Shown here in pieces: positions 575-63,539 of a stretch of 64,000 nucleotides of DNA. The first letter of the stretch is position 1. The number at the start of each line of letters is the position of its first letter. Both the position numbers and the translations under genes were made by a program. The notes under the pieces were generated by a model. The model did not search any database. It saw only the letters and a program-made list of their open reading frames with translations, and was not told the origin of the DNA. Source of the stretch: Singulisphaera sp. GP187 (GTDB lineage Bacteria > Chloroflexota > Chloroflexia > Chloroflexales > Roseiflexaceae); assembly GCA_943328915.2 (NCBI GenBank), contig CALQBW020000004.1, positions 379 through 64,378 on the forward strand, in the 5' to 3' direction.

Positions 575-1126
575 CTATCCCAATAATGCGGCATGCATCA
601 GGTCGTCACGCGGATGATCCGCAATGTTCCGACTATAATATGCCAATCTGAAATGACCCGTACGGTCAACCACAAACGTCCCCGGCATCTGCATCACATC
701 GCCCCCAATTGGTGCACCGCTCCCATACCCTTCAAGGGTAATTTTGACCGCCTCGATGGCAACTTGCGGCGCAAAAAAAGCCCCTATCCCCGCCCGACCC
801 AAGCCAAATTGCTCATAGGCCTGCTGATTTTGATCAATCATACACATGATATTAGGGGCGTATTGTTCCACAATAAACCGCGCCTCGACGGCATCACCCA
901 TGCCAACGGCCATCACGGTAACGTTGGGGGGAATTGTACGTTGGAAGCTGGCTAAACTAGCCAGTGTCTTGCGACAAAACGGTCAGCCAAAATGGCGTAA
1001 AAACGAAATCACTAATCCACCTTGTTGCCACGTCGTGTGCAATTCGTGCGTGACGCCATTGACATCGTTCATCGTCAACCGCGGTGCACTATCACCAACC
1101 TGCCACCGGACCTTTGTTACAGTCAT
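575..1126 (-). CDS. PRX-like2 / AhpC-TSA-type thioredoxin-fold protein with one in-frame TGA at the first redox-Cys position (candidate selenoprotein, motif U-P-F-C)
   Basis: Track ORF 575..916 (..GGDVMQMPGTFVVDRTGHFRLAYYSRNIADHP..) continues upstream in the same frame through TGA at 983..985 to ATG 1126, which has an SD-like GGAAAGGAA upstream. The N-terminus reads MTVTKVRWQVGDSAPRLTMNDVNGVTHELHTTWQQGGLVISFLRHFG[TGA]PFCRKTLASLASFQ. This family normally has G-C-x-x-C-R at that spot. Confidence 0.75.
948..964 (-). promoter_or_regulatory. SECIS-like hairpin 18 nt 3' of the in-frame TGA of the PRX-like gene
   Basis: Minus-strand RNA CUGGCUA-GUU-UAGCCAG forms a perfect 7-bp stem with a GUU apical loop. 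The architecture matches 50115..50131. Confidence 0.5.
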
Positions 1127-47417: not shown

Positions 47418-49454
47418 GTGGACTATCTTGCAAACTTAAATGAAGATCAATATGCGGCAGTTGTGGCACCAATCGGACCAGTGCTAGTCAAAGCAGGTGC
47501 GGGCAGCGGCAAAACACGGGTATTGACGTTGCGCATCGCGCATCTCGTGAATCACCACAAAGTGGATGTCGGGCATATTTTGGCGTTGACATTTACCAAC
47601 AAAGCAGCCAAAGAGATGCGCCAACGGCTCAAACCAATTCTCGGGAGCAAAATCCAACGTTTGACAACGGGGACATTCCATGCCATTTGTGTCAAAATTT
47701 TGCGCCAGCACATCGAAGGCAAATTAGGGCATTACACCCGTAATTTCAGCATTTACAGTGGTGATGAACAAGAGCAACTTGCCCAGCAAAGTATAGATGC
47801 AGCACCAGAAGTATCACCGGAAGCAACAGACGTCAATGATTTATTACGGCGGATTTCGCGGGCAAAAAGTCGCTTACAAACCCCCAAAATGTTGCTCGCG
47901 ACAGCCGAAAACAGCAATGACAGCTGGATCGCCTTACGTTATCGTCACTATCAAGGCTTGTTGTCAGAATCAAACGCCGTTGACTTTGATGATTTGATAC
48001 AACTAGCCTATCGGTTGCTGAGTGAACACGAAGACGTGCTGGATGCGGTTCAAAAACAATGGCGTCATGTACTAGTCGATGAATACCAGGACACTGACCC
48101 GAGCCAATTTAGCTTGGTGCGCTTGCTGAGTGAGCCGGTCGGGGCACGGCCGCGTTCGTTGTTTGCCGTAGGCGATGCGATGCAGTCAATTTATGGATTC
48201 CGAAATGCTGATCACACAATTATTACGCGCTTCCAAGAGACATTTACCCAGGCAACGGTGATTGAACTCAAAACGAATTACCGTAGCCGCCAACCAATCC
48301 TCGATGCAGCATATGCAGTGATTCGGCATAGTAAATCAGTACCACCAATGCAACTAAATGCGAATAATCAGGCTCGTCAAATCGATAAAAGCGTGATATT
48401 TTAGCAATATCAGCACGCCAAAGAAGAAGCCCAAAAGATTGCCCACGAGATTGCGAGTATGACGAATAGCGCTGAGAACGTCGGTGCATTTGGTGATGTC
48501 AAACGTGAAGGCAGGCGCCCACGTGAAATTGCAATTTTGTACCGCTCGAAGTTTATGAGCCGTGCGTTTGAAGAAGCCTTGCGTTTGTTGCGCATCCCGT
48601 ACAAACTCAAAGGTCAATTAGGATTTTATGACCGGGCAGTGGTACGCGACTTACTGGCATTTGTGCGTTTGGCCGTCAATTCGCGGGATAATATGGCGTT
48701 GACGCGCATCGCCGACATCCCCAAACGAGGCTTGAGTGCCAAGCCACTCAAGGTTTTTAGTGTGGAAGCGGCGCGGCGGAATTTGGCTATTGCCGATGTA
48801 CTGGGCGACATCATGATTTTGGCACAACTCGACGAAAAAGCGCGCAGCGGCGCGCGCCAACTCTATCAGCTGCTCGGGCGGTTGCGACAGCGCATCAAGA
48901 ACAATATTGGGCCACGTGATTTACTAGAAGATATTTTGGTGCAAACCCAATACATGGCCTATCTAGAAGGTCTGCAGAGCAAAGATGCCGAAAAATTAAG
49001 TGATGCCAAAGAACACATCAATGAATTGATGCTCGTCGCAGACGATTACGATAGCGCTGAAGAATTTTTGCAGTTTATCGCAATAATGACCAGCAGCGAT
49101 GATGGAGACGACGAGCGGGATCAATTACAACTCCTCACAATCCATGCCGCCAAAGGTCTTGAGTGGCCATTGGTGTTTGTGGTAGGCCTGGAGGAAGGGG
49201 TATTGCCGCACGAACGGAGCATGTCGACGAATGAAGGAATCGAAGAAGAGCGTCGGTTGTGCTATGTCGCGGTGACGCGGGCGGCCGAGCGTTTGTATTT
49301 ATCGTGGTGCGCGGAACGGAGTGGCAGCAGTAGCAGCCGTACTCCCAAAAAGAACGTCAAAGGCGCATCGGCACAGACCAAACGTTCACGATTTTATGAT
49401 GACATCGAAGCCTACGGCCAAGAGCTCGCTGCTCGGCGAAATACCCAACAATAG
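47418..49454 (+). pseudogene. UvrD/PcrA/Rep-family DNA helicase, frame interrupted by a single in-frame TAG (48402..48404)
   Basis: Track ORFs 47418..48404 and 48459..49454 are in the same frame. The first carries motifs AGAGSGKT, TFTNKAAKEM, VDEYQDT and VGDAMQSIYGFRNA. Read-through gives ..DKSVIF*QYQHAKEEAQKIAHEI.. then ..AILYRS.., ..TIHAAKGLEW.., ..YVAVTRA.. Confidence 0.85.
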
Positions 49455-49888: not shown

Positions 49889-49907
49889 CGCCGCACATGC
49901 TGCGGCG
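49889..49907. terminator. Hairpin between convergent genes (possible bidirectional terminator)
   Basis: CGCCGCA-CATGC-TGCGGCG forms a 7-bp GC-rich stem. Flanking T content is modest. Confidence 0.4.
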
Positions 49908-49911
49908 TTAT

Positions 49912-50268
49912 TCATCGACAAATCTCAATCACTGCCTGGGTAAGTTGCGCTTCATTGGGGACGCCGTTGAAACGCGTGGTTACGCTACCAGCACGGTCAA
50001 TAACCACAACGACAGGGTGGGCTTTGACGCCGTATTGTTGGGCAAGTTGTAATCCATCAGGAGTGGCATAATTGGCGCGTACAACAGTCAGACAACCAGT
50101 AAATTGTTGGTCCAGCCTATCAACGATAGGCATTGTTTGGGTTCAGGGGATTCAGCCGTTGGTATAAACAAATAGTACGGCGGGTCCATCCAACACGTTG
50201 GTTGGGGCAACACCACAGCCCATCAAGAGACTTGTGGCAACTAATCCAAATACGGTACGTCGTTGCAT
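49912..50268 (-). CDS. Small thioredoxin-fold lipoprotein with two in-frame TGA codons replacing the CxxC pair (candidate U-I-P-U selenoprotein)
   Basis: The same frame runs from ATG 50268 through TGA 50152..50154 and TGA 50143..50145 to the stop at 49912. It reads MQRRTVFGLVATSLLMGC|GVAPTNVLDGPAVLFVYTNG[TGA]IP[TGA]TQTMPIVDRLDQQF..YGVKAHPVVVVIDRAG.. Lipobox LMGC; cis-Pro region HP; thioredoxin layout. Confidence 0.7.
50115..50131 (-). promoter_or_regulatory. SECIS-like hairpin 11 nt / 20 nt 3' of the two in-frame TGA codons
   Basis: Minus-strand RNA GCCUAUC-GUU-GAUAGGC forms a perfect 7-bp stem with a GUU loop. Confidence 0.5.
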
Positions 50269-50284
50269 GATGACACCTTTGGCG

Positions 50285-50322
50285 AAAAAACACTGCGCAC
50301 AACCAAATAGTTGTGCGCAGTG
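50285..50322 (-). terminator. Strong intrinsic terminator after the molybdopterin hydroxylase gene
   Basis: Minus-strand RNA CACUGCGCACAAC-UAUUUG-GUUGUGCGCAGUG forms a 13-bp perfect stem followed by UUUUUU. Confidence 0.7.
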
Positions 50323-50350
50323 TGCCATAGAATATGCCATTATGCAACAT

Positions 50351-52627
50351 CTACTTTTGTTGTAAAACCTTCCACACCGTCTCATCGCGCAACGGCAAGT
50401 CAAGCACGCGTGCGCCGCTAGCGGCGCGAACGGCGTTGGCTACAGCGGCAGCACCGGCGGTGATGGGGGGTTCACCGATACCACGGGCACCAAAGGGACC
50501 GAAGGGGGCTTTGTTATGGACCATGACCACTTCGATATCGGGCAAGGCTTCGCCGCCGGGGAGGCTGTAGTCCATGAAGCTGGCGGTCAATAACTGACCG
50601 TAATCGTCATAGACCATCGCTTCGTGCAAGGCCCAACCGAGCCCTTGGGCCACACCACCATGGATTTGGCCTTCGACCAGCAACGGATTGAGGGCAAAGC
50701 CAACATCTTGGATGGCGAGGTACTTGAGGGGGGTCACATGGCCGGTATCGGGATCGACATGGACTTTGACGAGGTGGGTAACAAAACCAGGCGCATTCTC
50801 GGAGATGGCGGTGGTGCCTTCTCCCATGATAGGGCCACTACCGCCGGCTTTGTTTTCGGCCAATTCGGCAATCGCGCCGATTTCCATGGCTTTGTCGGGG
50901 AACCCTTTGACGCTCACCACACCGTCGCGCAATTCGAGGTCAGCGGGGTTTGCTTCAAATTGTTCGGCAGCCACATCGATGAGCTTTTGGCGCACGACAC
51001 GGGCTGCCGCGGCTACGGCACCCGACACACTATAGGTGGTTTGGCTACCACCACTGGGGCCGGCCCGGGGACCGGTGCGGGTATCGCCTTGGATGAGTTG
51101 GATGCGGTCGGGCGAGATGTCGAGGATTTCGGCGGCGACAAGCACCAACGAACTATTGACGCCCGAGATATCGACTGAGCCGACGTGGATGCGCACTGCG
51201 CCATCGCTGTCGACGGCACAAACCGAAGCGGCCGGCGACATACCACACAACCAACCGCCAGCAGCCATACCCCAGGCCGTGTTGGGCTCTTGGGTACGGT
51301 TTTGCCACCACGGGTGGTTCTGCAGGGTTTCGAGGCATTGGCGCATGCCGATACTGGGCCACGGGTCCCCGTTACCCATCAAATCACCGGTTTCGACACA
51401 GTTTTGCAGGCGCAATTCAAGGGGATCGCGACCGAGGGCGCGGGCCAGCTCGTCCATGCTTGATTCAATGGCAAAGGTGGCCGAAGGGGCACCGGGGGCA
51501 CGGTACGCTCCTCCTTGGAGTTTGTGGGTCAATACTTCGCGACAGAGTATTCGCACGTTGTCGCATTTGTAATAGCCGCCAATCAAAATCCCGACGATGC
51601 CACCAATGGTGAATGGGAAGACACCGTTGTCGATGGTGGCGACGGCATCGATGGCTGCGATGCGACCATCGTTGTAGGCTGCCACGGTTAAATCAATTTC
51701 CATGGCAGGTGAGGGAGTGGTGGTCAAAAAATCTTCGCTACGCGTCAACACAATTTTGACTGGATGGCGCACTGTCCACGCTACTGCAGCGGCCAAGGGG
51801 TCGAGTGTCCCGTATTTGGCACCAAATGCGCCACCTATCACCATCGGGATAACCCGCACTTTGGATTTGGGAATACCGATGAGTCGGGCGACTTCATCGC
51901 GCACACCAAATTGGCCTTGGGTGCTGGTATAAATGGTAATTTCACCACGAAACGGATGGGGCTCTGCCACCACCGCATGAGGCTCGATGTAGCCTTGGTG
52001 GACCATGGGGGTAGTGTAGTGGTGTTTGAGCACGATGTCGGCACCAGCAATGGCTTTGTCGACATTACCACGACCAAACTTGGTTTCTTCGTGGATGTTG
52101 GACGGGGCACGATGACTCGTGTCACTGCCTTTGTCGACGGCGGCGTGGGCTGCAGTCAAGTCGAGACCGTCTTTGGGCAGACCGTTAGGCCAAATCAGGG
52201 CTGCATTGGGGGCAATCGCATCAGCCATATTGCTCAATACGGGAAGGGGTTCGTAGTCTACGATTACTGCGTCGGCGCCATCTTTGGCAGCAGCTTCTGT
52301 TTCGGCGACGACCACCACGACGGGGTGACCGCGAAACAAAACTTTGTCGTGAGCCAATACCGCACTTGAACGCGAATTCACTACACGGTCACGAGTGGGC
52401 AAATCGGCGGCAATCAATACAGCCACCACGCCGGGGACAGCCATGGCGGCTGTGCGGTCAATGGATTTGATGTTTGCATGAGCATATGGGCTCAATACCG
52501 GGCGGGCATGCAACATGCCAGGCAAATTTAGGTCACCGGTGTATTGGGCTGTGCCAGTAATTTTTTCAGAGCCATCAATAATTTTGTGGCGTTTACCAAG
52601 GGTACGATATTCAGAACTCGTTGTCAT
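50351..52627 (-). CDS. Xanthine dehydrogenase/aldehyde oxidase family molybdopterin-binding large subunit
   Basis: Starts directly with the a/b-hammerhead region ..YRTLGKRHKIIDGSEKITGTAQYTGDLNLPGMLHA.. About 758 aa, with no 2Fe-2S or FAD domain. Start moved to ATG 52627 behind GAGGA. Confidence 0.9.
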   Translation of the reverse strand: MTTSSEYRTLGKRHKIIDGSEKITGTAQYTGDLNLPGMLHARPVLSPYAHANIKSIDRTAAMAVPGVVAVLIAADLPTRDRVVNSRSSAVLAHDKVLFRGHPVVVVVAETEAAAKDGADAVIVDYEPLPVLSNMADAIAPNAALIWPNGLPKDGLDLTAAHAAVDKGSDTSHRAPSNIHEETKFGRGNVDKAIAGADIVLKHHYTTPMVHQGYIEPHAVVAEPHPFRGEITIYTSTQGQFGVRDEVARLIGIPKSKVRVIPMVIGGAFGAKYGTLDPLAAAVAWTVRHPVKIVLTRSEDFLTTTPSPAMEIDLTVAAYNDGRIAAIDAVATIDNGVFPFTIGGIVGILIGGYYKCDNVRILCREVLTHKLQGGAYRAPGAPSATFAIESSMDELARALGRDPLELRLQNCVETGDLMGNGDPWPSIGMRQCLETLQNHPWWQNRTQEPNTAWGMAAGGWLCGMSPAASVCAVDSDGAVRIHVGSVDISGVNSSLVLVAAEILDISPDRIQLIQGDTRTGPRAGPSGGSQTTYSVSGAVAAAARVVRQKLIDVAAEQFEANPADLELRDGVVSVKGFPDKAMEIGAIAELAENKAGGSGPIMGEGTTAISENAPGFVTHLVKVHVDPDTGHVTPLKYLAIQDVGFALNPLLVEGQIHGGVAQGLGWALHEAMVYDDYGQLLTASFMDYSLPGGEALPDIEVVMVHNKAPFGPFGARGIGEPPITAGAAAVANAVRAASGARVLDLPLRDETVWKVLQQK

Positions 52628-52676
52628 GGTTGGCTTTTTCCTCAGTTTATACAAAAATAATCGCACACTATCTTTA

Positions 52677-54011
52677 TTATACAACGACGGGAGCTTCATT
52701 CCCTGCTTCGTTGATAGCACGACGCACATTCACAAAAATCAGCAAGAGAAAACCCACCACGAAGAATACCCCAATCATCGACAATGCCAATCGATACGAA
52801 TTGGTGAATTGATACACCAACCCAAAAACCAACGGCCCAATCCAACTCGTACCACGCTCACTGACTTCGTAGAGGCTGTAGTATTCTGATTCTTTGCCCT
52901 TGGGAATCATTTGGGCGAACAACGAGCGACTCAAGGCTTGCGTGCCACCCAGCACGACGGCAATGCCGGCACCAAGCAACAAGAACTGTACGACACTCCC
53001 TTTAACGATGAAATAACTGACCACCGTGAGTGATGTCCACACCACGAGACTAATCAAAATGGATTTTTTGGCACCAATACGGCGCGCCACCTGATTGAAC
53101 CCGAGTGCGCCAAACCAGGCCACAAACTGCACCATCAAAATGGTAATAATCAACGTTTGTGATTCCATACCGAGTTCTTGGGTACCAAAGGTCGACGACA
53201 TGGCGATGACGGTCTGGACGCCGTCGTTGTAAAGTAGGTATGCCCCAAGGAACAACAATGTTTGCGGATAACGCACCGAATTCCGGAGCGTCTCACCGAG
53301 CTGTGCGAAACCTGCCGTCACCACCGATTGCCCTTTTTGCAAATCATGTACTGCGGCGGTATTGGGCAAACTACGCAACGTGATAGGAATAAATATTGCC
53401 ATCCACACACCAGCCGATGCCAAACAAATCCGCACGGCCAAACCACCATCGATGCCGATTTGTTCGTACGACAAAAATAGCGCCAAATTGAGGATGAGCA
53501 ATAAGCCACCACCAAGGTAGCCAAAGGCAAAACCACGTGACGACACCGCGTCGCGCTCATCGGGGGTGGCGATTTCGGGAAGAAATGCATTGTAAAAGAC
53601 CATCGATGCGCCAAAGGTGAGGTTAGCCACCAAGTATAGGAGCCCCCCAAATAAATAGTCTGTGCCTTGCATGAAAAACATCAAAATGACCGCTACCGTC
53701 GAGATATACGCAAAAATCCCCATCATACGTCGTTTGAGCGACGTATAATCAGCGACTGCTCCCAAAATAGGTAAGACGAAGACCTGCAATAAGACCGACA
53801 AGGAGGTCACATAGGCATAAAATGAACCCGCAGCGATAGGAATGTTCGGCCCGAATGGAAACAACATGCCACCGGTATCTTTGGCGGCTGCCTCGGCAAT
53901 ACTGGTCAAATATGGTCCCAAAAAGACCGCACCGACGGTGGTGGAATAGGCAGACACTGCCCAGTCAAAAAAATACCAACCGCGTTGTTCGCGTGTCCCT
54001 TTAAACATCAC
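52677..54011 (-). CDS. MFS transporter, UMF1 (Atg22-like) family
   Basis: ..RGWYFFDWAVSAYSTTV.. N-terminal signature, 444 aa, about 12 TM segments. Confidence 0.85.
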   Translation of the reverse strand: MMFKGTREQRGWYFFDWAVSAYSTTVGAVFLGPYLTSIAEAAAKDTGGMLFPFGPNIPIAAGSFYAYVTSLSVLLQVFVLPILGAVADYTSLKRRMMGIFAYISTVAVILMFFMQGTDYLFGGLLYLVANLTFGASMVFYNAFLPEIATPDERDAVSSRGFAFGYLGGGLLLILNLALFLSYEQIGIDGGLAVRICLASAGVWMAIFIPITLRSLPNTAAVHDLQKGQSVVTAGFAQLGETLRNSVRYPQTLLFLGAYLLYNDGVQTVIAMSSTFGTQELGMESQTLIITILMVQFVAWFGALGFNQVARRIGAKKSILISLVVWTSLTVVSYFIVKGSVVQFLLLGAGIAVVLGGTQALSRSLFAQMIPKGKESEYYSLYEVSERGTSWIGPLVFGLVYQFTNSYRLALSMIGVFFVVGFLLLIFVNVRRAINEAGNEAPVVV

Positions 54012-61079: not shown

Positions 61080-63539
61080 TTAAATAGCAATGAGTGAATT
61101 GAGTTCGTCGGTTATTTGTGATAGCACATCAGACAATGATTGTTTCGATTCCAATGACGAATTGATGACTGTTTGGTCTGCTATCTGGACAAAATATTGC
61201 TCAATTAATTGATCAAATACAACCCCACGGGATACTCCACGCTCGGATCGGAAGCCATTGACACTGGTTAACAACTGATATGCGTGTGTGGTATTGCCTT
61301 GGACACAGAGCAATACAATATAAAGGTCTATGCAATACAATACGCTTTTTGCATTACCGGATTTGGTTATCTCTTGGAGGGTGATATACAAATAATTGAT
61401 GGTCGCGAGAATATCACGCGCCATTAATTCATTCATGGCGAGACGCATGTACGTTTGTGAAACTTCAATGGAGCGGAAGGTTTGTTGATACGCAACCAAT
61501 GCCTGTTTGAATTGGTTGCGGGCAAGGGTGTAATCGCCCATTAACGATAACGTCATCGCATGTAAACGTAGGATATTGGCATAAAAATCATTTGATTCAT
61601 TGGTTGCATTCGGTATTGAAATAAGTTGTAATGCAACGGCCGAGTGTTTATGTGCCACAGAAACATTGCCGGCAAACAGATGCAAGTACGCCAAACAATG
61701 ATTGGCGCGGCTTTGCCACTCGATATGTTGATGTGTCAAGAAATATTCAATTGCAAATTCCAATTCATGACACAAAAAATCAAAATCAATGTGATTAAAA
61801 TTCACATCGCGAACCACATACCCGAGTGCTTGAATAACTGCAACCCGAGCACGGAAATAATCATTTGTATGCAACAGCTCGCTTGCGCGTACGTGCATGA
61901 AACAGCTGATTGCATTAAATGTAAGCCCACGTTCACTATATAAGTTCCCTAAGGTTAGTTGCATTTCGACATATGTATTTGATTCGTTCGGTAACATGCG
62001 CACGCACTGTTCCATCACTTGTACAATATCAGCGGTGTCACCCACTTCAATGGCAATCTCGCTACACAGACAACACAACAATGCACAGGCATCGACCATA
62101 CCAGCATTGAGCATCAATGTCGCGACCTGCAACACTACGGGTAAATCGTTCTGAAAATTGAACATATTGAGAGGGAATTTCATGTCAATGGTAAAACCTT
62201 CACACAACACATGAAAAATTGATTGCAGATAATTGATGCGTTTGACCGGCAACAACGTTGCAGTTATTTGCGTAAATATGGTTCGTTGTACCATGATATT
62301 GGTCTCTAACGGATTTTCAACTACGAGCAAATAGCCTTTGTTTTTGAGTATTTTGATAGATTCTTCAATTTTGGCAACCGAGGTCTCACCAATTCCCGGT
62401 GCCACCACACGGATAAACTGCTCTGACATTTGGACCTGGAGCACGGTCATTAATTCTAATACGGAGCGGACGGTGCTATCTAAATGGTCAATTAAATCGC
62501 CGTTGGAGTAGGGTGAATAGACAAAATTAGTTGTTTGCAACTGATTCACCATCTGTTGAATGGCGCCGGGATTCCCTTGGGTCATTTGCGTAATCACCTG
62601 CAATAATTCTTTTTGCGGTGCAAACATGCCATTGTTGAACAGGCAGCGTTTGGCAAAAATCCACGCGGGTGAATCATTATTTTCGTACATCAGTGGTGCG
62701 ATTTTGGTGATTTGGATGGGGATGGTGCTACTGACCTCGGGCATATTACGCATGGTAATCAACCACATAAACGAGGGAAATTGTAGTTGCATGTAGTCGA
62801 TCCACGGTGTAACGGTAAAGTGTTCTGTTTCTTCAAAATCATCAAAGAGCATGATGGGATTGTGTCGTACGATATAATTATTTATTTGCGTTTTGATGGG
62901 TTGATAATCGTTCCCTTGGATACCAAACTGTTTCAACATCAGCGTTTGGAGTTGGGTAAACGATCGGACATCGTTAAGGTTTATTTTCACCACGGGGGTA
63001 CCTTTAAATAGTTGATATTGGCGCATTAATTCGCCGGCAATCATTGTTTTGCCGATACCGGGTTCACCCACGATGATTTGGCATTTGCCGGCAATGAGCT
63101 CGCTATACACTTGTTGAATTATTTTTTCTTGACCGATAATGGCATCTTCCCACACATTATGGTGAATCCCATATAATCCAAGCATGCCATTCCATTCATC
63201 TTTGGAGAAGTAGCGTGCGTATGCGTGGATATGATTAATTGGAATACGAGTCGCAATCAGCAACGAAAAAAGTTCAGTAGCCGTCATGATGTGTGGCTGC
63301 AACTCAAAAAGCACCGCAATTACCCCATTCACCACCGCAATCGGTGCAGTGGTGTCACGATCGGACCGGGTCATAAACCAATCGTCGAATTTGGCACGTG
63401 TGATCGCCACACCTTTGGCATTGATTTGGTCAATGATGTCAGGAACGGTGATTTTTTCTTTGCGCAAGCGCCCTACCACCGTGCGCATCAGCTCATTAAT
63501 AGCGATTTTGTCAAATACGAGTAACGAATGTGAATCCAT
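61080..63539 (-). CDS. STAND (NB-ARC-like) P-loop NTPase with C-terminal TPR-like repeats and unassigned ~140-aa N-terminal domain
   Basis: Walker A ..IIVGEPGIGKTM.., Walker B ..IMLFDDFE.., a GxP-type ..QGNPGAIQ.. motif, then a ~450-aa helical repeat region. The segment is markedly AT-richer than the rest of the window. Confidence 0.72.
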   Translation of the reverse strand: MDSHSLLVFDKIAINELMRTVVGRLRKEKITVPDIIDQINAKGVAITRAKFDDWFMTRSDRDTTAPIAVVNGVIAVLFELQPHIMTATELFSLLIATRIPINHIHAYARYFSKDEWNGMLGLYGIHHNVWEDAIIGQEKIIQQVYSELIAGKCQIIVGEPGIGKTMIAGELMRQYQLFKGTPVVKINLNDVRSFTQLQTLMLKQFGIQGNDYQPIKTQINNYIVRHNPIMLFDDFEETEHFTVTPWIDYMQLQFPSFMWLITMRNMPEVSSTIPIQITKIAPLMYENNDSPAWIFAKRCLFNNGMFAPQKELLQVITQMTQGNPGAIQQMVNQLQTTNFVYSPYSNGDLIDHLDSTVRSVLELMTVLQVQMSEQFIRVVAPGIGETSVAKIEESIKILKNKGYLLVVENPLETNIMVQRTIFTQITATLLPVKRINYLQSIFHVLCEGFTIDMKFPLNMFNFQNDLPVVLQVATLMLNAGMVDACALLCCLCSEIAIEVGDTADIVQVMEQCVRMLPNESNTYVEMQLTLGNLYSERGLTFNAISCFMHVRASELLHTNDYFRARVAVIQALGYVVRDVNFNHIDFDFLCHELEFAIEYFLTHQHIEWQSRANHCLAYLHLFAGNVSVAHKHSAVALQLISIPNATNESNDFYANILRLHAMTLSLMGDYTLARNQFKQALVAYQQTFRSIEVSQTYMRLAMNELMARDILATINYLYITLQEITKSGNAKSVLYCIDLYIVLLCVQGNTTHAYQLLTSVNGFRSERGVSRGVVFDQLIEQYFVQIADQTVINSSLESKQSLSDVLSQITDELNSLIAI

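Follow-up and report, generated by a model that had tools for sequence, protein, structure and literature searches.

Introduction

Pairs of selenocysteine (Sec, U) arranged as U-x-x-U have been reported in bacterial peroxiredoxin (Prx)-like oxidoreductases, in a mercuric-reductase-like metal-binding protein and in FmdB-family proteins (reviews PMC9312934, PMC13188914), and a 2026 paper reports them in group 4 [NiFeSe] hydrogenases (PMC13582414). Here we describe a gene at positions 49912-50268 of a 64,000-nucleotide stretch of contig CALQBW020000004.1 (positions 379 to 64,378; assembly GCA_943328915.2, GTDB family Roseiflexaceae), which we call the window. It is probably one functional gene for a lipid-anchored extracytoplasmic oxidoreductase of the thioredoxin (Trx) fold, with a U-I-P-U redox motif of which both positions are UGA-encoded. 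The selenoprotein reading is preferred because the TGA pair is kept in relatives, the frame is under purifying selection on both sides of it, relatives with UxxC and CxxC motifs exist, a hairpin downstream is conserved and a second selenoprotein gene lies in the same window. The locus had been pointed out by a note made from the letters alone (the sequence-only reading), which named the SelL family as the known case of U-x-x-U. That precedent stands, but the motif is not confined to SelL: it is already known in four prokaryotic families and constitutes no new principle. What is new, and well supported, is a family of classical-Trx lipoproteins with UxxU, comprising two divergent branches and covered by no NCBIfam model.

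The SelL/Prx-like UxxU proteins (PF00578; Shchedrina et al. 2007; PMC2398784) share with the window protein the Trx-superfamily fold and UGA at both motif positions, and a diselenide is the expected oxidised state in both. However, the window protein does not belong to this group: it has no match to NF040769 at E <= 1, reaches 21.4 bits against a cutoff of 26 for AhpC-TSA, stays below threshold for Redoxin and is a minimal classical Trx domain on a lipoprotein signal. The SelL-related gene found in the same window (575-1126, see below) is of the UxxC type, not UxxU. The selenoproteins of the Trx family (PF00085) and of Thioredoxin_2 (PF13098, 'thiol:disulfide interchange protein') are catalogued as UxxC only. 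With them our protein shares the fold, the Pfam families, a first-position Sec and a downstream selenocysteine insertion sequence (SECIS), but they have one Sec, while the window protein adds a Sec at the resolving position and is a lipoprotein; its relative L031 is of their UxxC type. The group 4 [NiFeSe] hydrogenases (PMC13582414) also have U-x-x-U, UGAs 9 nt apart and a single SECIS-like hairpin whose loop has G at position 1 or 2. They are nevertheless unrelated proteins, in which Sec residues are Ni ligands of a cytoplasmic metalloenzyme and not the redox pair of an exported thioredoxin. A caveat raised for them, decoding by tRNA-ReC, holds equally for our gene and is weighed below.

Anchored Trx-like proteins of monoderm bacteria include ResA and StoA of B. 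subtilis, Etrx1/2 of S. pneumoniae and the TlpA/CcmG family. Like the window protein, these have an anchored, outward-facing Trx-fold domain with a CxxC-type motif, and in one branch of our family the operon of the gene with a c-type cytochrome recalls ResA and CcmG. However, the NCBIfam models for ResA, DsbE, TlpA and StoA match the window protein weakly (16-26 bits against cutoffs of 123-230), the TlpA/ResA-specific insertions are absent from its domain, the best structural matches are plain thioredoxins, and the motif carries Sec, not Cys. The sequence-only reading considered an exported or lipid-anchored bacterial selenoprotein unusual. We would not uphold this, as there are presumably precedents in the periplasmic formate dehydrogenase, the [NiFeSe] hydrogenase lipoprotein and predicted DsbA- and DsbG-like proteins.

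The gene and its product

The elements of the gene are as follows.

49912..50268, minus strand: coding sequence of the U-I-P-U thioredoxin-like lipoprotein, 118 sense or recoded codons and a terminal TGA (49912-49914)
50276..50280, minus strand: Shine-Dalgarno-like AAAGG, 8 nt 5' of the ATG, kept in relatives
50215..50268, minus strand: signal peptide with lipobox (MQRRTVFGLVATSLLMG followed by C), by a PROSITE PS51257-style pattern
50152..50154, minus strand: UGA1, codon 39, first redox position, equivalent to Cys32 in WCGPC of E. coli Trx
50143..50145, minus strand: UGA2, codon 42, second (resolving) position, equivalent to Cys35 of WCGPC

The 357-nt open reading frame (ORF) starts with the ATG at 50268 and, read directly from the window, contains exactly two internal stops, both TGA. 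Its redox region reads ..AVLFVYTNG-TGA-ATC-CCC-TGA-ACC CAA ACA ATG CCT ATC GTT GAT AGG.., and the translation is MQRRTVFGLVATSLLMGCGVAPTNVLDGPAVLFVYTNG, stop, IP, stop, TQTMPIVDRLDQQF...VIEICR and the terminal stop. The list of ORFs splits the gene in two pieces (50152..50403 and 49912..50133), which belong to one frame, exactly as the sequence-only reading had given it in coordinates and sequence. Codons 39 and 42 align on the cysteines of WCGPC, so that both redox cysteines of thioredoxins, the first of which is the nucleophile, are replaced by TGA, again as proposed. The public databases do carry the gene in mutilated form: NCBI holds only the 73-aa hypothetical protein MCX6015405.1, an identical fragment in the Chloroflexales metagenome-assembled genome GCA_026389835.1, and the JGI annotation consists of 'thioredoxin-related' fragments.

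A lipoprotein signal had been noticed from the letters, and it was found again by a pattern that requires a charged and hydrophobic N-terminus and [LVI][ASTVI][GAS]-C within the first 35 residues or so. The window protein matches with LLMG-C18 (predicted lipidation site Cys18 at 50215-50217), and so do all relatives with TGA at redox positions (U-forms), those with U-P-P-U included (LLMSC, LLVGC, LLTSC, VFASC, FTAAC, LLVAC). The protein therefore has the sequence features of a bacterial lipoprotein, with lipidation predicted. In the U-I-P-U clade the lipobox is preceded by a twin-arginine-like motif, RR-x-hydrophobic (MQRRTVF in the window, 50253-50268; MHRRTFL in L033), which hints at export of a folded selenoprotein by the twin-arginine translocation (Tat) system. 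This motif is absent in the U-P-P-U branch, and an NCBIfam scan of the window protein gave no match to the Tat-signal model TIGR01409 at E <= 1.

Profile searches were done with C substituted for both TGAs. Under this substitution PF00085 covers residues 28-113 and spans both pieces (23.6 bits against a cutoff of 23.5), TIGR01068 matches with E = 1e-8, and phmmer against the PDB aligns 'NGCIPC' with the 'WCGPC' of E. coli and other thioredoxins. The thioredoxin fold suspected earlier is thus confirmed at the level of the superfamily, with the redox columns aligned. The protein is not a canonical TrxA (35.3 bits against 96.8 for TIGR01068, 28.1 against 138 for NF006898), and the other branches likewise fall below the TrxA cutoffs. 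The AlphaFold2 model of a Cys-form member, P0134 (not of the window protein itself), has a domain pLDDT (per-residue confidence score) of about 98 and consists of an N-terminal anchor helix and a minimal beta-alpha-beta-alpha-beta-beta-alpha Trx fold with CPYC at the start of alpha1. Foldseek matches it best with classical thioredoxins of the PDB rather than with proteins of the DsbA or TlpA type (template modelling score, TM, 0.73-0.86; root-mean-square deviation 1.1-1.8 A).

Conservation of the TGA pair in close relatives

A search of 5.8 billion predicted proteins returned relatives of the U-I-P-U gene only as C-terminal fragments of 73 to 76 aa; therefore, gene callers cut the relatives at the same place. 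We collected the DNA of close relatives from the contigs of these database fragments, from four species-representative genomes (all of uncultured Roseiflexaceae) and from metagenome loci. This gave 26 U-I-P-U sequences, namely 24 full-length ones (16 distinct), the partial contig L027 and L033, and together with the U-P-P-U loci L028, L029 and L034 a total of 29 double-TGA sequences.

All 24 full-length U-I-P-U sequences are 357 nt long, have 77-100% nucleotide identity to the window gene and carry TGA at codons 39 and 42. Both TGAs are also present in L027, and L033, a relative of 51% amino acid identity in the same gene neighbourhood, is U-I-P-U again and has a lipobox. Counting the U-P-P-U loci, TGA occupies both redox positions in 29 of 29 sequences, far beyond what chance would give. 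These come from independent assemblies of many samples, and sequencing error as the source of the TGAs, which would have undermined the sequence-only reading, does not apply. Neither TAA nor TAG ever replaces the internal TGAs, whereas at the end of the gene TGA (in most relatives) alternates with TAA. Upstream and downstream of the TGA pair alike, variable sites lie mostly in third codon positions, and the ratio of nonsynonymous to synonymous substitution (dN/dS, Nei-Gojobori) is 0.22 for codons 1-38 and 0.17 for codons 43-118. What is seen is therefore what a selenoprotein gene is expected to show, in-frame UGAs kept across orthologues in a frame under purifying selection (29/29; dN/dS about 0.2). 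Genome-wide reassignment of TGA was considered and rejected on stop-codon usage: the 50 long window ORFs end in 23 TAA, 16 TGA and 11 TAG.

The SECIS-like hairpin

The hairpin reported by the sequence-only reading 3' of the TGA pair is present.

50115..50131, minus strand: SECIS-like hairpin GCCUAUC-GUU-GAUAGGC, 7-bp stem and G-first triloop

It runs from the third base of codon 46 through codons 47-51 (P-I-V-D-R) to the first base of codon 52, and its stem begins 20 nt past UGA1 and 11 nt past UGA2. In the U-I-P-U clade the stem codons are invariant, though the proportion of synonymous differences (pS) elsewhere is about 0.35; the only changes are a loop GUU to GUC in L033 and a closing G-C to G-U wobble in L023. 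The Arg codon in the stem is AGG, the rarest Arg codon of the window (19 of 1,132; 1.7%), and the probability that codon usage alone gives a pairing set of P-I-V-D-R codons is about 0.01.

Beyond this clade the structure is kept while its sequence changes. The U-P-P-U branch has, in the same register, CCC AUC GUG GAU GGG, in which a U-A pair has become C-G by changes on both sides; in L034 the closing pair is lost and two outer pairs are gained. L031, a UxxC form, has a wholly different stem (GCUCCC/GGGAGC), again in the same register. Over the alignment 94% of cells are paired, against 29-41% with slid partners, and three pairs have changed on both sides. The covariation score of 0.371 against 0.165 in shuffles (0 of 500 as high) comes from few, phylogenetically structured sequences with a single Cys-form DNA control. 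That control, L032, keeps P-I-V-D but encodes it as CCC AUU GUG GAC CAG and has no hairpin (-2.3 kcal/mol). The loops of all Sec-form hairpins (GUU, GUC, GUG or cGUGa) have G at position 1 or 2, as in the bacterial SECIS consensus (PMC13582414). Thus all Sec forms have a stem-loop in a fixed register with G among the first two loop positions, as expected of a selenoprotein SECIS.

A second selenoprotein gene in the same window

We also looked for pairs of ORFs in one frame with a TGA between them, and this led to another selenoprotein gene, far from the first one.

575..1126, minus strand: gene of a SelL-related redox protein, 183 codons, TGA at 983-985 (codon 48), FLRHFG-U-PFC
948..964, minus strand: SECIS-like hairpin of this gene, CUGGCUA-GUU-UAGCCAG, 7-bp stem and GUU triloop, folding z = -1.96

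NCBIfam NF040769, 'SelL-related redox protein', recognises its product with 124.6 bits (curated cutoff 120). Its close relatives, with 76-90% identity, are without exception cut off at the TGA, while distant ones (30-43% identity) are full length and have Cys at the TGA column, FLR[YH]FG-C-PFC. The TGA is kept in the 76%-identical relatives L024-L026, as is the hairpin, which begins 18 nt past the UGA and has the loop GGU there. This is a textbook selenoprotein gene with a Sec/Cys pair. Its hairpin and that of the U-I-P-U gene have the same design of a 7-bp stem and a GUU triloop, and since the chance per TGA is about 0.005, a hairpin at both pre-identified genes is unlikely to be a coincidence. 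With a SelL-related selenoprotein gene in the same window, the genome that contains the U-I-P-U gene therefore very probably decodes Sec. Use of Sec is documented for the Chloroflexi, and their tRNA-Sec has been characterised (PMC1794560, PMC5389517).

U-P-P-U, UxxC and CxxC relatives

The wider family was searched with HMMER, using a C-terminal profile against 1.84 billion cluster representatives at E < 1e-3. The search found 126 proteins, and the 125 new ones were mapped to the family hidden Markov model. Full-length CxxC proteins account for 34 of these remote representatives; many of them start with a lipoprotein signal or a membrane anchor, and they have Cys on the same columns (P0101, CEAC; P0134, CPYC; P0121, CVYC; P0151, CAAC). 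Cys homologues, another mark of selenoprotein genes, are thus found at both UGA columns (34/125). The CxxC relatives are distant, about 25-35% identical to the window protein, and no close Cys orthologue of the U-I-P-U gene was found among the relatives recovered. About 82 of the 125 representatives are fragments that start at or just past the redox motif. Seven of these start one residue past the first redox position and contain the second Cys, and therefore imply UxxC.

At the DNA level, L028 and L029 (36-42% identity) and L034 encode lipoproteins with TGA-CCN-CCC-TGA, i.e. U-P-P-U; L031 (25% identity) has W-U-T-F-C, i.e. UxxC; and L032 is a true C-P-Y-C form. C-x-x-C, U-x-x-C and U-x-x-U are consequently all represented in the homologue alignment at these columns. 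As in the U-I-P-U clade, database relatives of the U-P-P-U branch (56-93% identity) are without exception fragments, 18 of 18 being 75- to 76-aa pieces cut at the same point. L030 was dropped as a family member, as its upstream frame belongs to another, amidase-like gene. No NCBIfam model, selenoprotein-specific or other, reaches its cutoff for any branch of the family.

The public protein P0142 has W-P-P-W (codons 45 and 48) where the corresponding DNA, L034, has TGA-CCT-CCC-TGA, so TGA was called as Trp; the call also overruns a probable true TGA stop, and the record fails to translate under table 11. Alternative-code gene calling in metagenome pipelines can in this way disguise selenoproteins as Trp proteins.

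Of about 83 TGA or fragment forms, 38 have His as the residue before the cis-Pro, a position that abuts the active site in the thioredoxin fold, and none of the 34 CxxC forms does. In the window this residue is His codon 81 (..VKAHPV.., about 50026-50028). This His may tune or ligate the Sec pair or may merely reflect phylogeny, the correlation being phylogenetically confounded.

Weighing the selenoprotein reading

Several points speak against a double-Sec gene at this locus. ARAGORN found no tRNA and no tRNA-Sec in the 64-kb window or in loci L014-L023, and a Pfam scan of about 45 window ORFs found no SelA, SelB or SelD. The hairpin is short, with a folding energy z of -0.5 to -0.7, and comparable hairpins follow about 0.5% of the window's TGA trinucleotides by chance; 14 were observed after TGA in the window and 11.9 +/- 2.6 are expected in shuffled sequence. 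Hairpin energy was rejected as evidence for this reason, and the hairpin alone is weak evidence, because its energy is unremarkable and hairpins after TGA are as frequent as in shuffled sequence; it is the comparative data, small as their sample is, that carry the weight. The 20-nt spacing of UGA1 departs from the classical UGA-to-stem spacing of E. coli, which is 11 nt. No Rfam SECIS model matched, either in a gathering-threshold scan of the window or in a permissive scan of 49900-50350, and the only Rfam matches near the gene are spurious miRNA-model matches on an intergenic hairpin. To our knowledge, no experiment has yet shown SelB to deliver twice in succession from one hairpin. Catalytic direction, substrate and partner of the enzyme are pure inference, and no CcdA/DsbD-type partner is encoded nearby, nor did the Pfam scan find CcdA/DsbD or Msr among the window ORFs.

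The main caveat is that tRNA-ReC could insert Cys at one or both UGAs. Under this explanation the gene is real, but a SelC*-type tRNA would use SelB and the same hairpin to read one or both codons as Cys, which would give UxxC, CxxU or CxxC. Such SECIS-dependent decoding of UGA as Cys has been reported, and about 56% of the genomes that encode UxxU-type hydrogenases have tRNA-ReC, as do about 2% of the other Sec-type genomes (PMC13582414). However, both codons are TGA in 29 sequences over saturated synonymous divergence, although one A-to-C or A-to-T change would give a Cys codon that is decoded efficiently, and this strict retention suggests selection for something that Cys cannot provide. 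In addition, a known selenoprotein family is represented in this genome by a gene with one Sec. The lack of tRNAs of any kind in the window and in L014-L023 is uninformative either way. On balance we regard Cys insertion as unlikely.

It is also improbable, for other reasons, that the double Sec site serves to bind a soft metal or metalloid (Hg, Cu, As, Se) in an extracytoplasmic chaperone or detoxification protein. UxxU does occur in a mercuric-reductase-like metal-binding selenoprotein family, a U-P-P-U gene lies among genes for a heavy-metal-resistance/LTXXQ protein, DUF305, MarR and rhodanese, and the His before the cis-Pro distinguishes TGA or fragment forms from CxxC forms. However, the closest folds and sequences are classical thioredoxins, the neighbours in the window clade encode an enzyme of the xanthine dehydrogenase (XDH) type, a transporter of the major facilitator superfamily (MFS) and a holin-like protein, with no metal genes, and the His correlation is confounded by phylogeny.

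A decaying pseudogene, or two small genes for a 38- to 62-residue lipopeptide and a 73-residue protein, can be regarded as effectively refuted. In favour of these readings, gene callers split the frame exactly so, and the neighbouring UvrD gene has an apparently strain-specific nonsense codon in the window, which suggests that pseudogenes occur here. Against decay, the frame, the 357-nt length and both TGAs are the same in 16 distinct full-length sequences at about 78-80% nucleotide identity and in the 51%-identity orthologue; dN/dS is about 0.2 on both sides; and TGA alone is used for the internal stops of a gene whose terminal stop varies. Against two genes, the Trx fold requires both halves, and the Cys-form relatives are contiguous single ORFs with CxxC, so that the two halves are not independent, a possibility that would have refuted the sequence-only reading. 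In L022 no start codon (ATG, GTG or TTG) lies in the interval from the second TGA to the hairpin, and therefore an independently translated C-terminal gene is excluded there. Finally, reading of UGA by a near-cognate or suppressor tRNA (e.g. for Trp) or in a reassigned code, which would give W-I-P-W or similar and no selenium, may be dismissed, since the W-P-P-W of P0142 that seems to speak for it is an artefact, TGA ends 16 of the 50 long window ORFs and, in most relatives, the gene in question as well, a domain under purifying selection would lose its redox function with Trp at both CxxC columns, and neither about 50% GC nor a Chloroflexales lineage is associated with TGA reassignment.

Proposed mechanism and significance

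If the gene encodes a double-Sec lipoprotein, as we consider probable, SelB with Sec-tRNA(Sec) would bind the single P-I-V-D-R hairpin and deliver Sec first at UGA1 and then, three codons on and from the same hairpin with its stem 11 nt downstream, at UGA2. One SECIS serving both UGAs of a UxxU motif has been proposed for the hydrogenases (PMC13582414). The preprotein would be exported, diacylglyceryl-modified at Cys18 and cleaved, and the product would be a classical Trx domain of roughly 100 residues held by its anchor on the outside of the cytoplasmic membrane. In this position the Sec pair would cycle between diselenide and diselenol, or would form a selenenyl-sulfide with a substrate, in thiol-disulfide exchange on exported proteins.

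Diselenides, in the SelL study and in work on selenoglutaredoxin and selenoglutathione, are reportedly much lower in redox potential and yet faster reacting. Both a strongly reducing reductase and a kinetically efficient oxidase are thus conceivable. As a first guess we favour a reductase role of the Trx, ResA or Etrx type, since both the x-Pro dipeptide of the motif and the best structural matches point to thioredoxins of the reducing kind.

A more far-reaching interpretation is tentative, and we hold it to be possible rather than likely. According to it both UGAs would be decoded as Sec through one minimal SECIS that doubles as the P-I-V-D-[R/G] codons, and the gene would belong to a widespread, uncatalogued family of lipid-anchored diselenide thioredoxins outside the cytoplasm, with a capability beyond that of Cys. 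Its members would fall into no fewer than two divergent UxxU branches and into dozens of clusters at 90% identity, and gene calling would have reduced all of them to pieces of 73 to 76 aa. Candidates for the capability would be partner-independent oxidative folding, coupled to O2 or cytochrome c, or a very low-potential extracellular reductase, possibly aided by the His before the cis-Pro that is seen only in TGA forms.

If both codons are Sec, one short SECIS would serve two UGAs 9 nt apart, SelB would have to deliver from it twice in a row, and the gene would be a natural test of tandem Sec insertion. The protein would also be a model of roughly 100 residues, probably easily expressed, of a native diselenide centre outside the bacterial cell, which is relevant to oxidative protein folding and to selenoprotein engineering. 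The public records examined for the U-form family are 73- to 76-aa fragments or a W-P-P-W mistranslation, and as no NCBIfam model covers the family, it is undercounted in censuses of the selenoproteomes of Chloroflexota and of freshwater and engineered metagenomes. An apparently aerobic freshwater lineage of Roseiflexaceae would, moreover, invest Sec in at least two proteins of the thiol-oxidoreductase type.

Genomic neighbourhood

In the U-I-P-U clade the gene order is invariant: an MFS (ATG22-like) gene, an XDH-family molybdopterin subunit gene and then the U-I-P-U gene, which is convergent with a gene for a holin_4_2-like membrane protein. The trio of ATG22-like MFS, XDH-like and selenoprotein genes is syntenic down to 51% identity (L033). 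The molybdopterin subunit, of the XDH/aldehyde-oxidase family (50351-52729, minus strand; 758-792 aa), is encoded without adjacent genes for FAD or 2Fe-2S subunits. Two hairpins flank the selenoprotein gene.

50284..50323, minus strand: terminator-like 15-bp hairpin with T-run, between the XDH-like stop and the selenoprotein ribosome binding site
49889..49907, minus strand: 3' hairpin CGCCGCA-GCATG-TGCGGCG, 4 nt past the stop and before the convergent holin-like gene, no T-run

The upstream hairpin is a perfect inverted repeat, ACACTGCGCACAAC-loop-GTTGTGCGCAGTGT, found clade-wide with variation confined to the loop; in L033 its place is taken by another stem-loop, which lacks the T-run. Only about 20 nt separate it from the ATG, which leaves no room for a separate promoter, and the U-I-P-U gene would therefore probably be expressed by terminator read-through. 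The hairpin may be a terminator or an attenuator that sets the read-through into the selenoprotein gene. A family-wide functional link to the XDH-like gene was considered and rejected, because the terminator-like hairpin intervenes and the U-P-P-U neighbourhood differs.

The U-P-P-U gene of L028 (1813-2328, contig Ga0299914_10002029) starts about 14 nt past a c-type cytochrome gene and is flanked by genes for MarR, a heavy-metal-resistance/LTXXQ protein, DUF305, rhodanese and a histidine kinase. These surroundings look like an envelope or metal-stress island, unlike those in the window, and a role in envelope redox or metal stress is plausible.

Elsewhere in the window, a UvrD/PcrA-type helicase gene is split by an in-frame TAG at 48402-48404 (plus strand; ORFs 47418-48404 and 48459-49454, ..DKSVIF-stop-QYQHAKEEAQ..). 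L014 and L017-L019 encode an intact 678-aa UvrD, and L016 (GCA_026389835.1) has no UvrD call in the interval; the TAG is a strain-specific nonsense mutation, a pseudogene or a sequencing error. Lastly, an 819-aa NB-ARC/STAND-type NTPase (AAA_22, NB-ARC, nSTAND3) is encoded near the window's end, at 61080-63539 on the minus strand, in a stretch of lower GC content (45% against about 50-53%).

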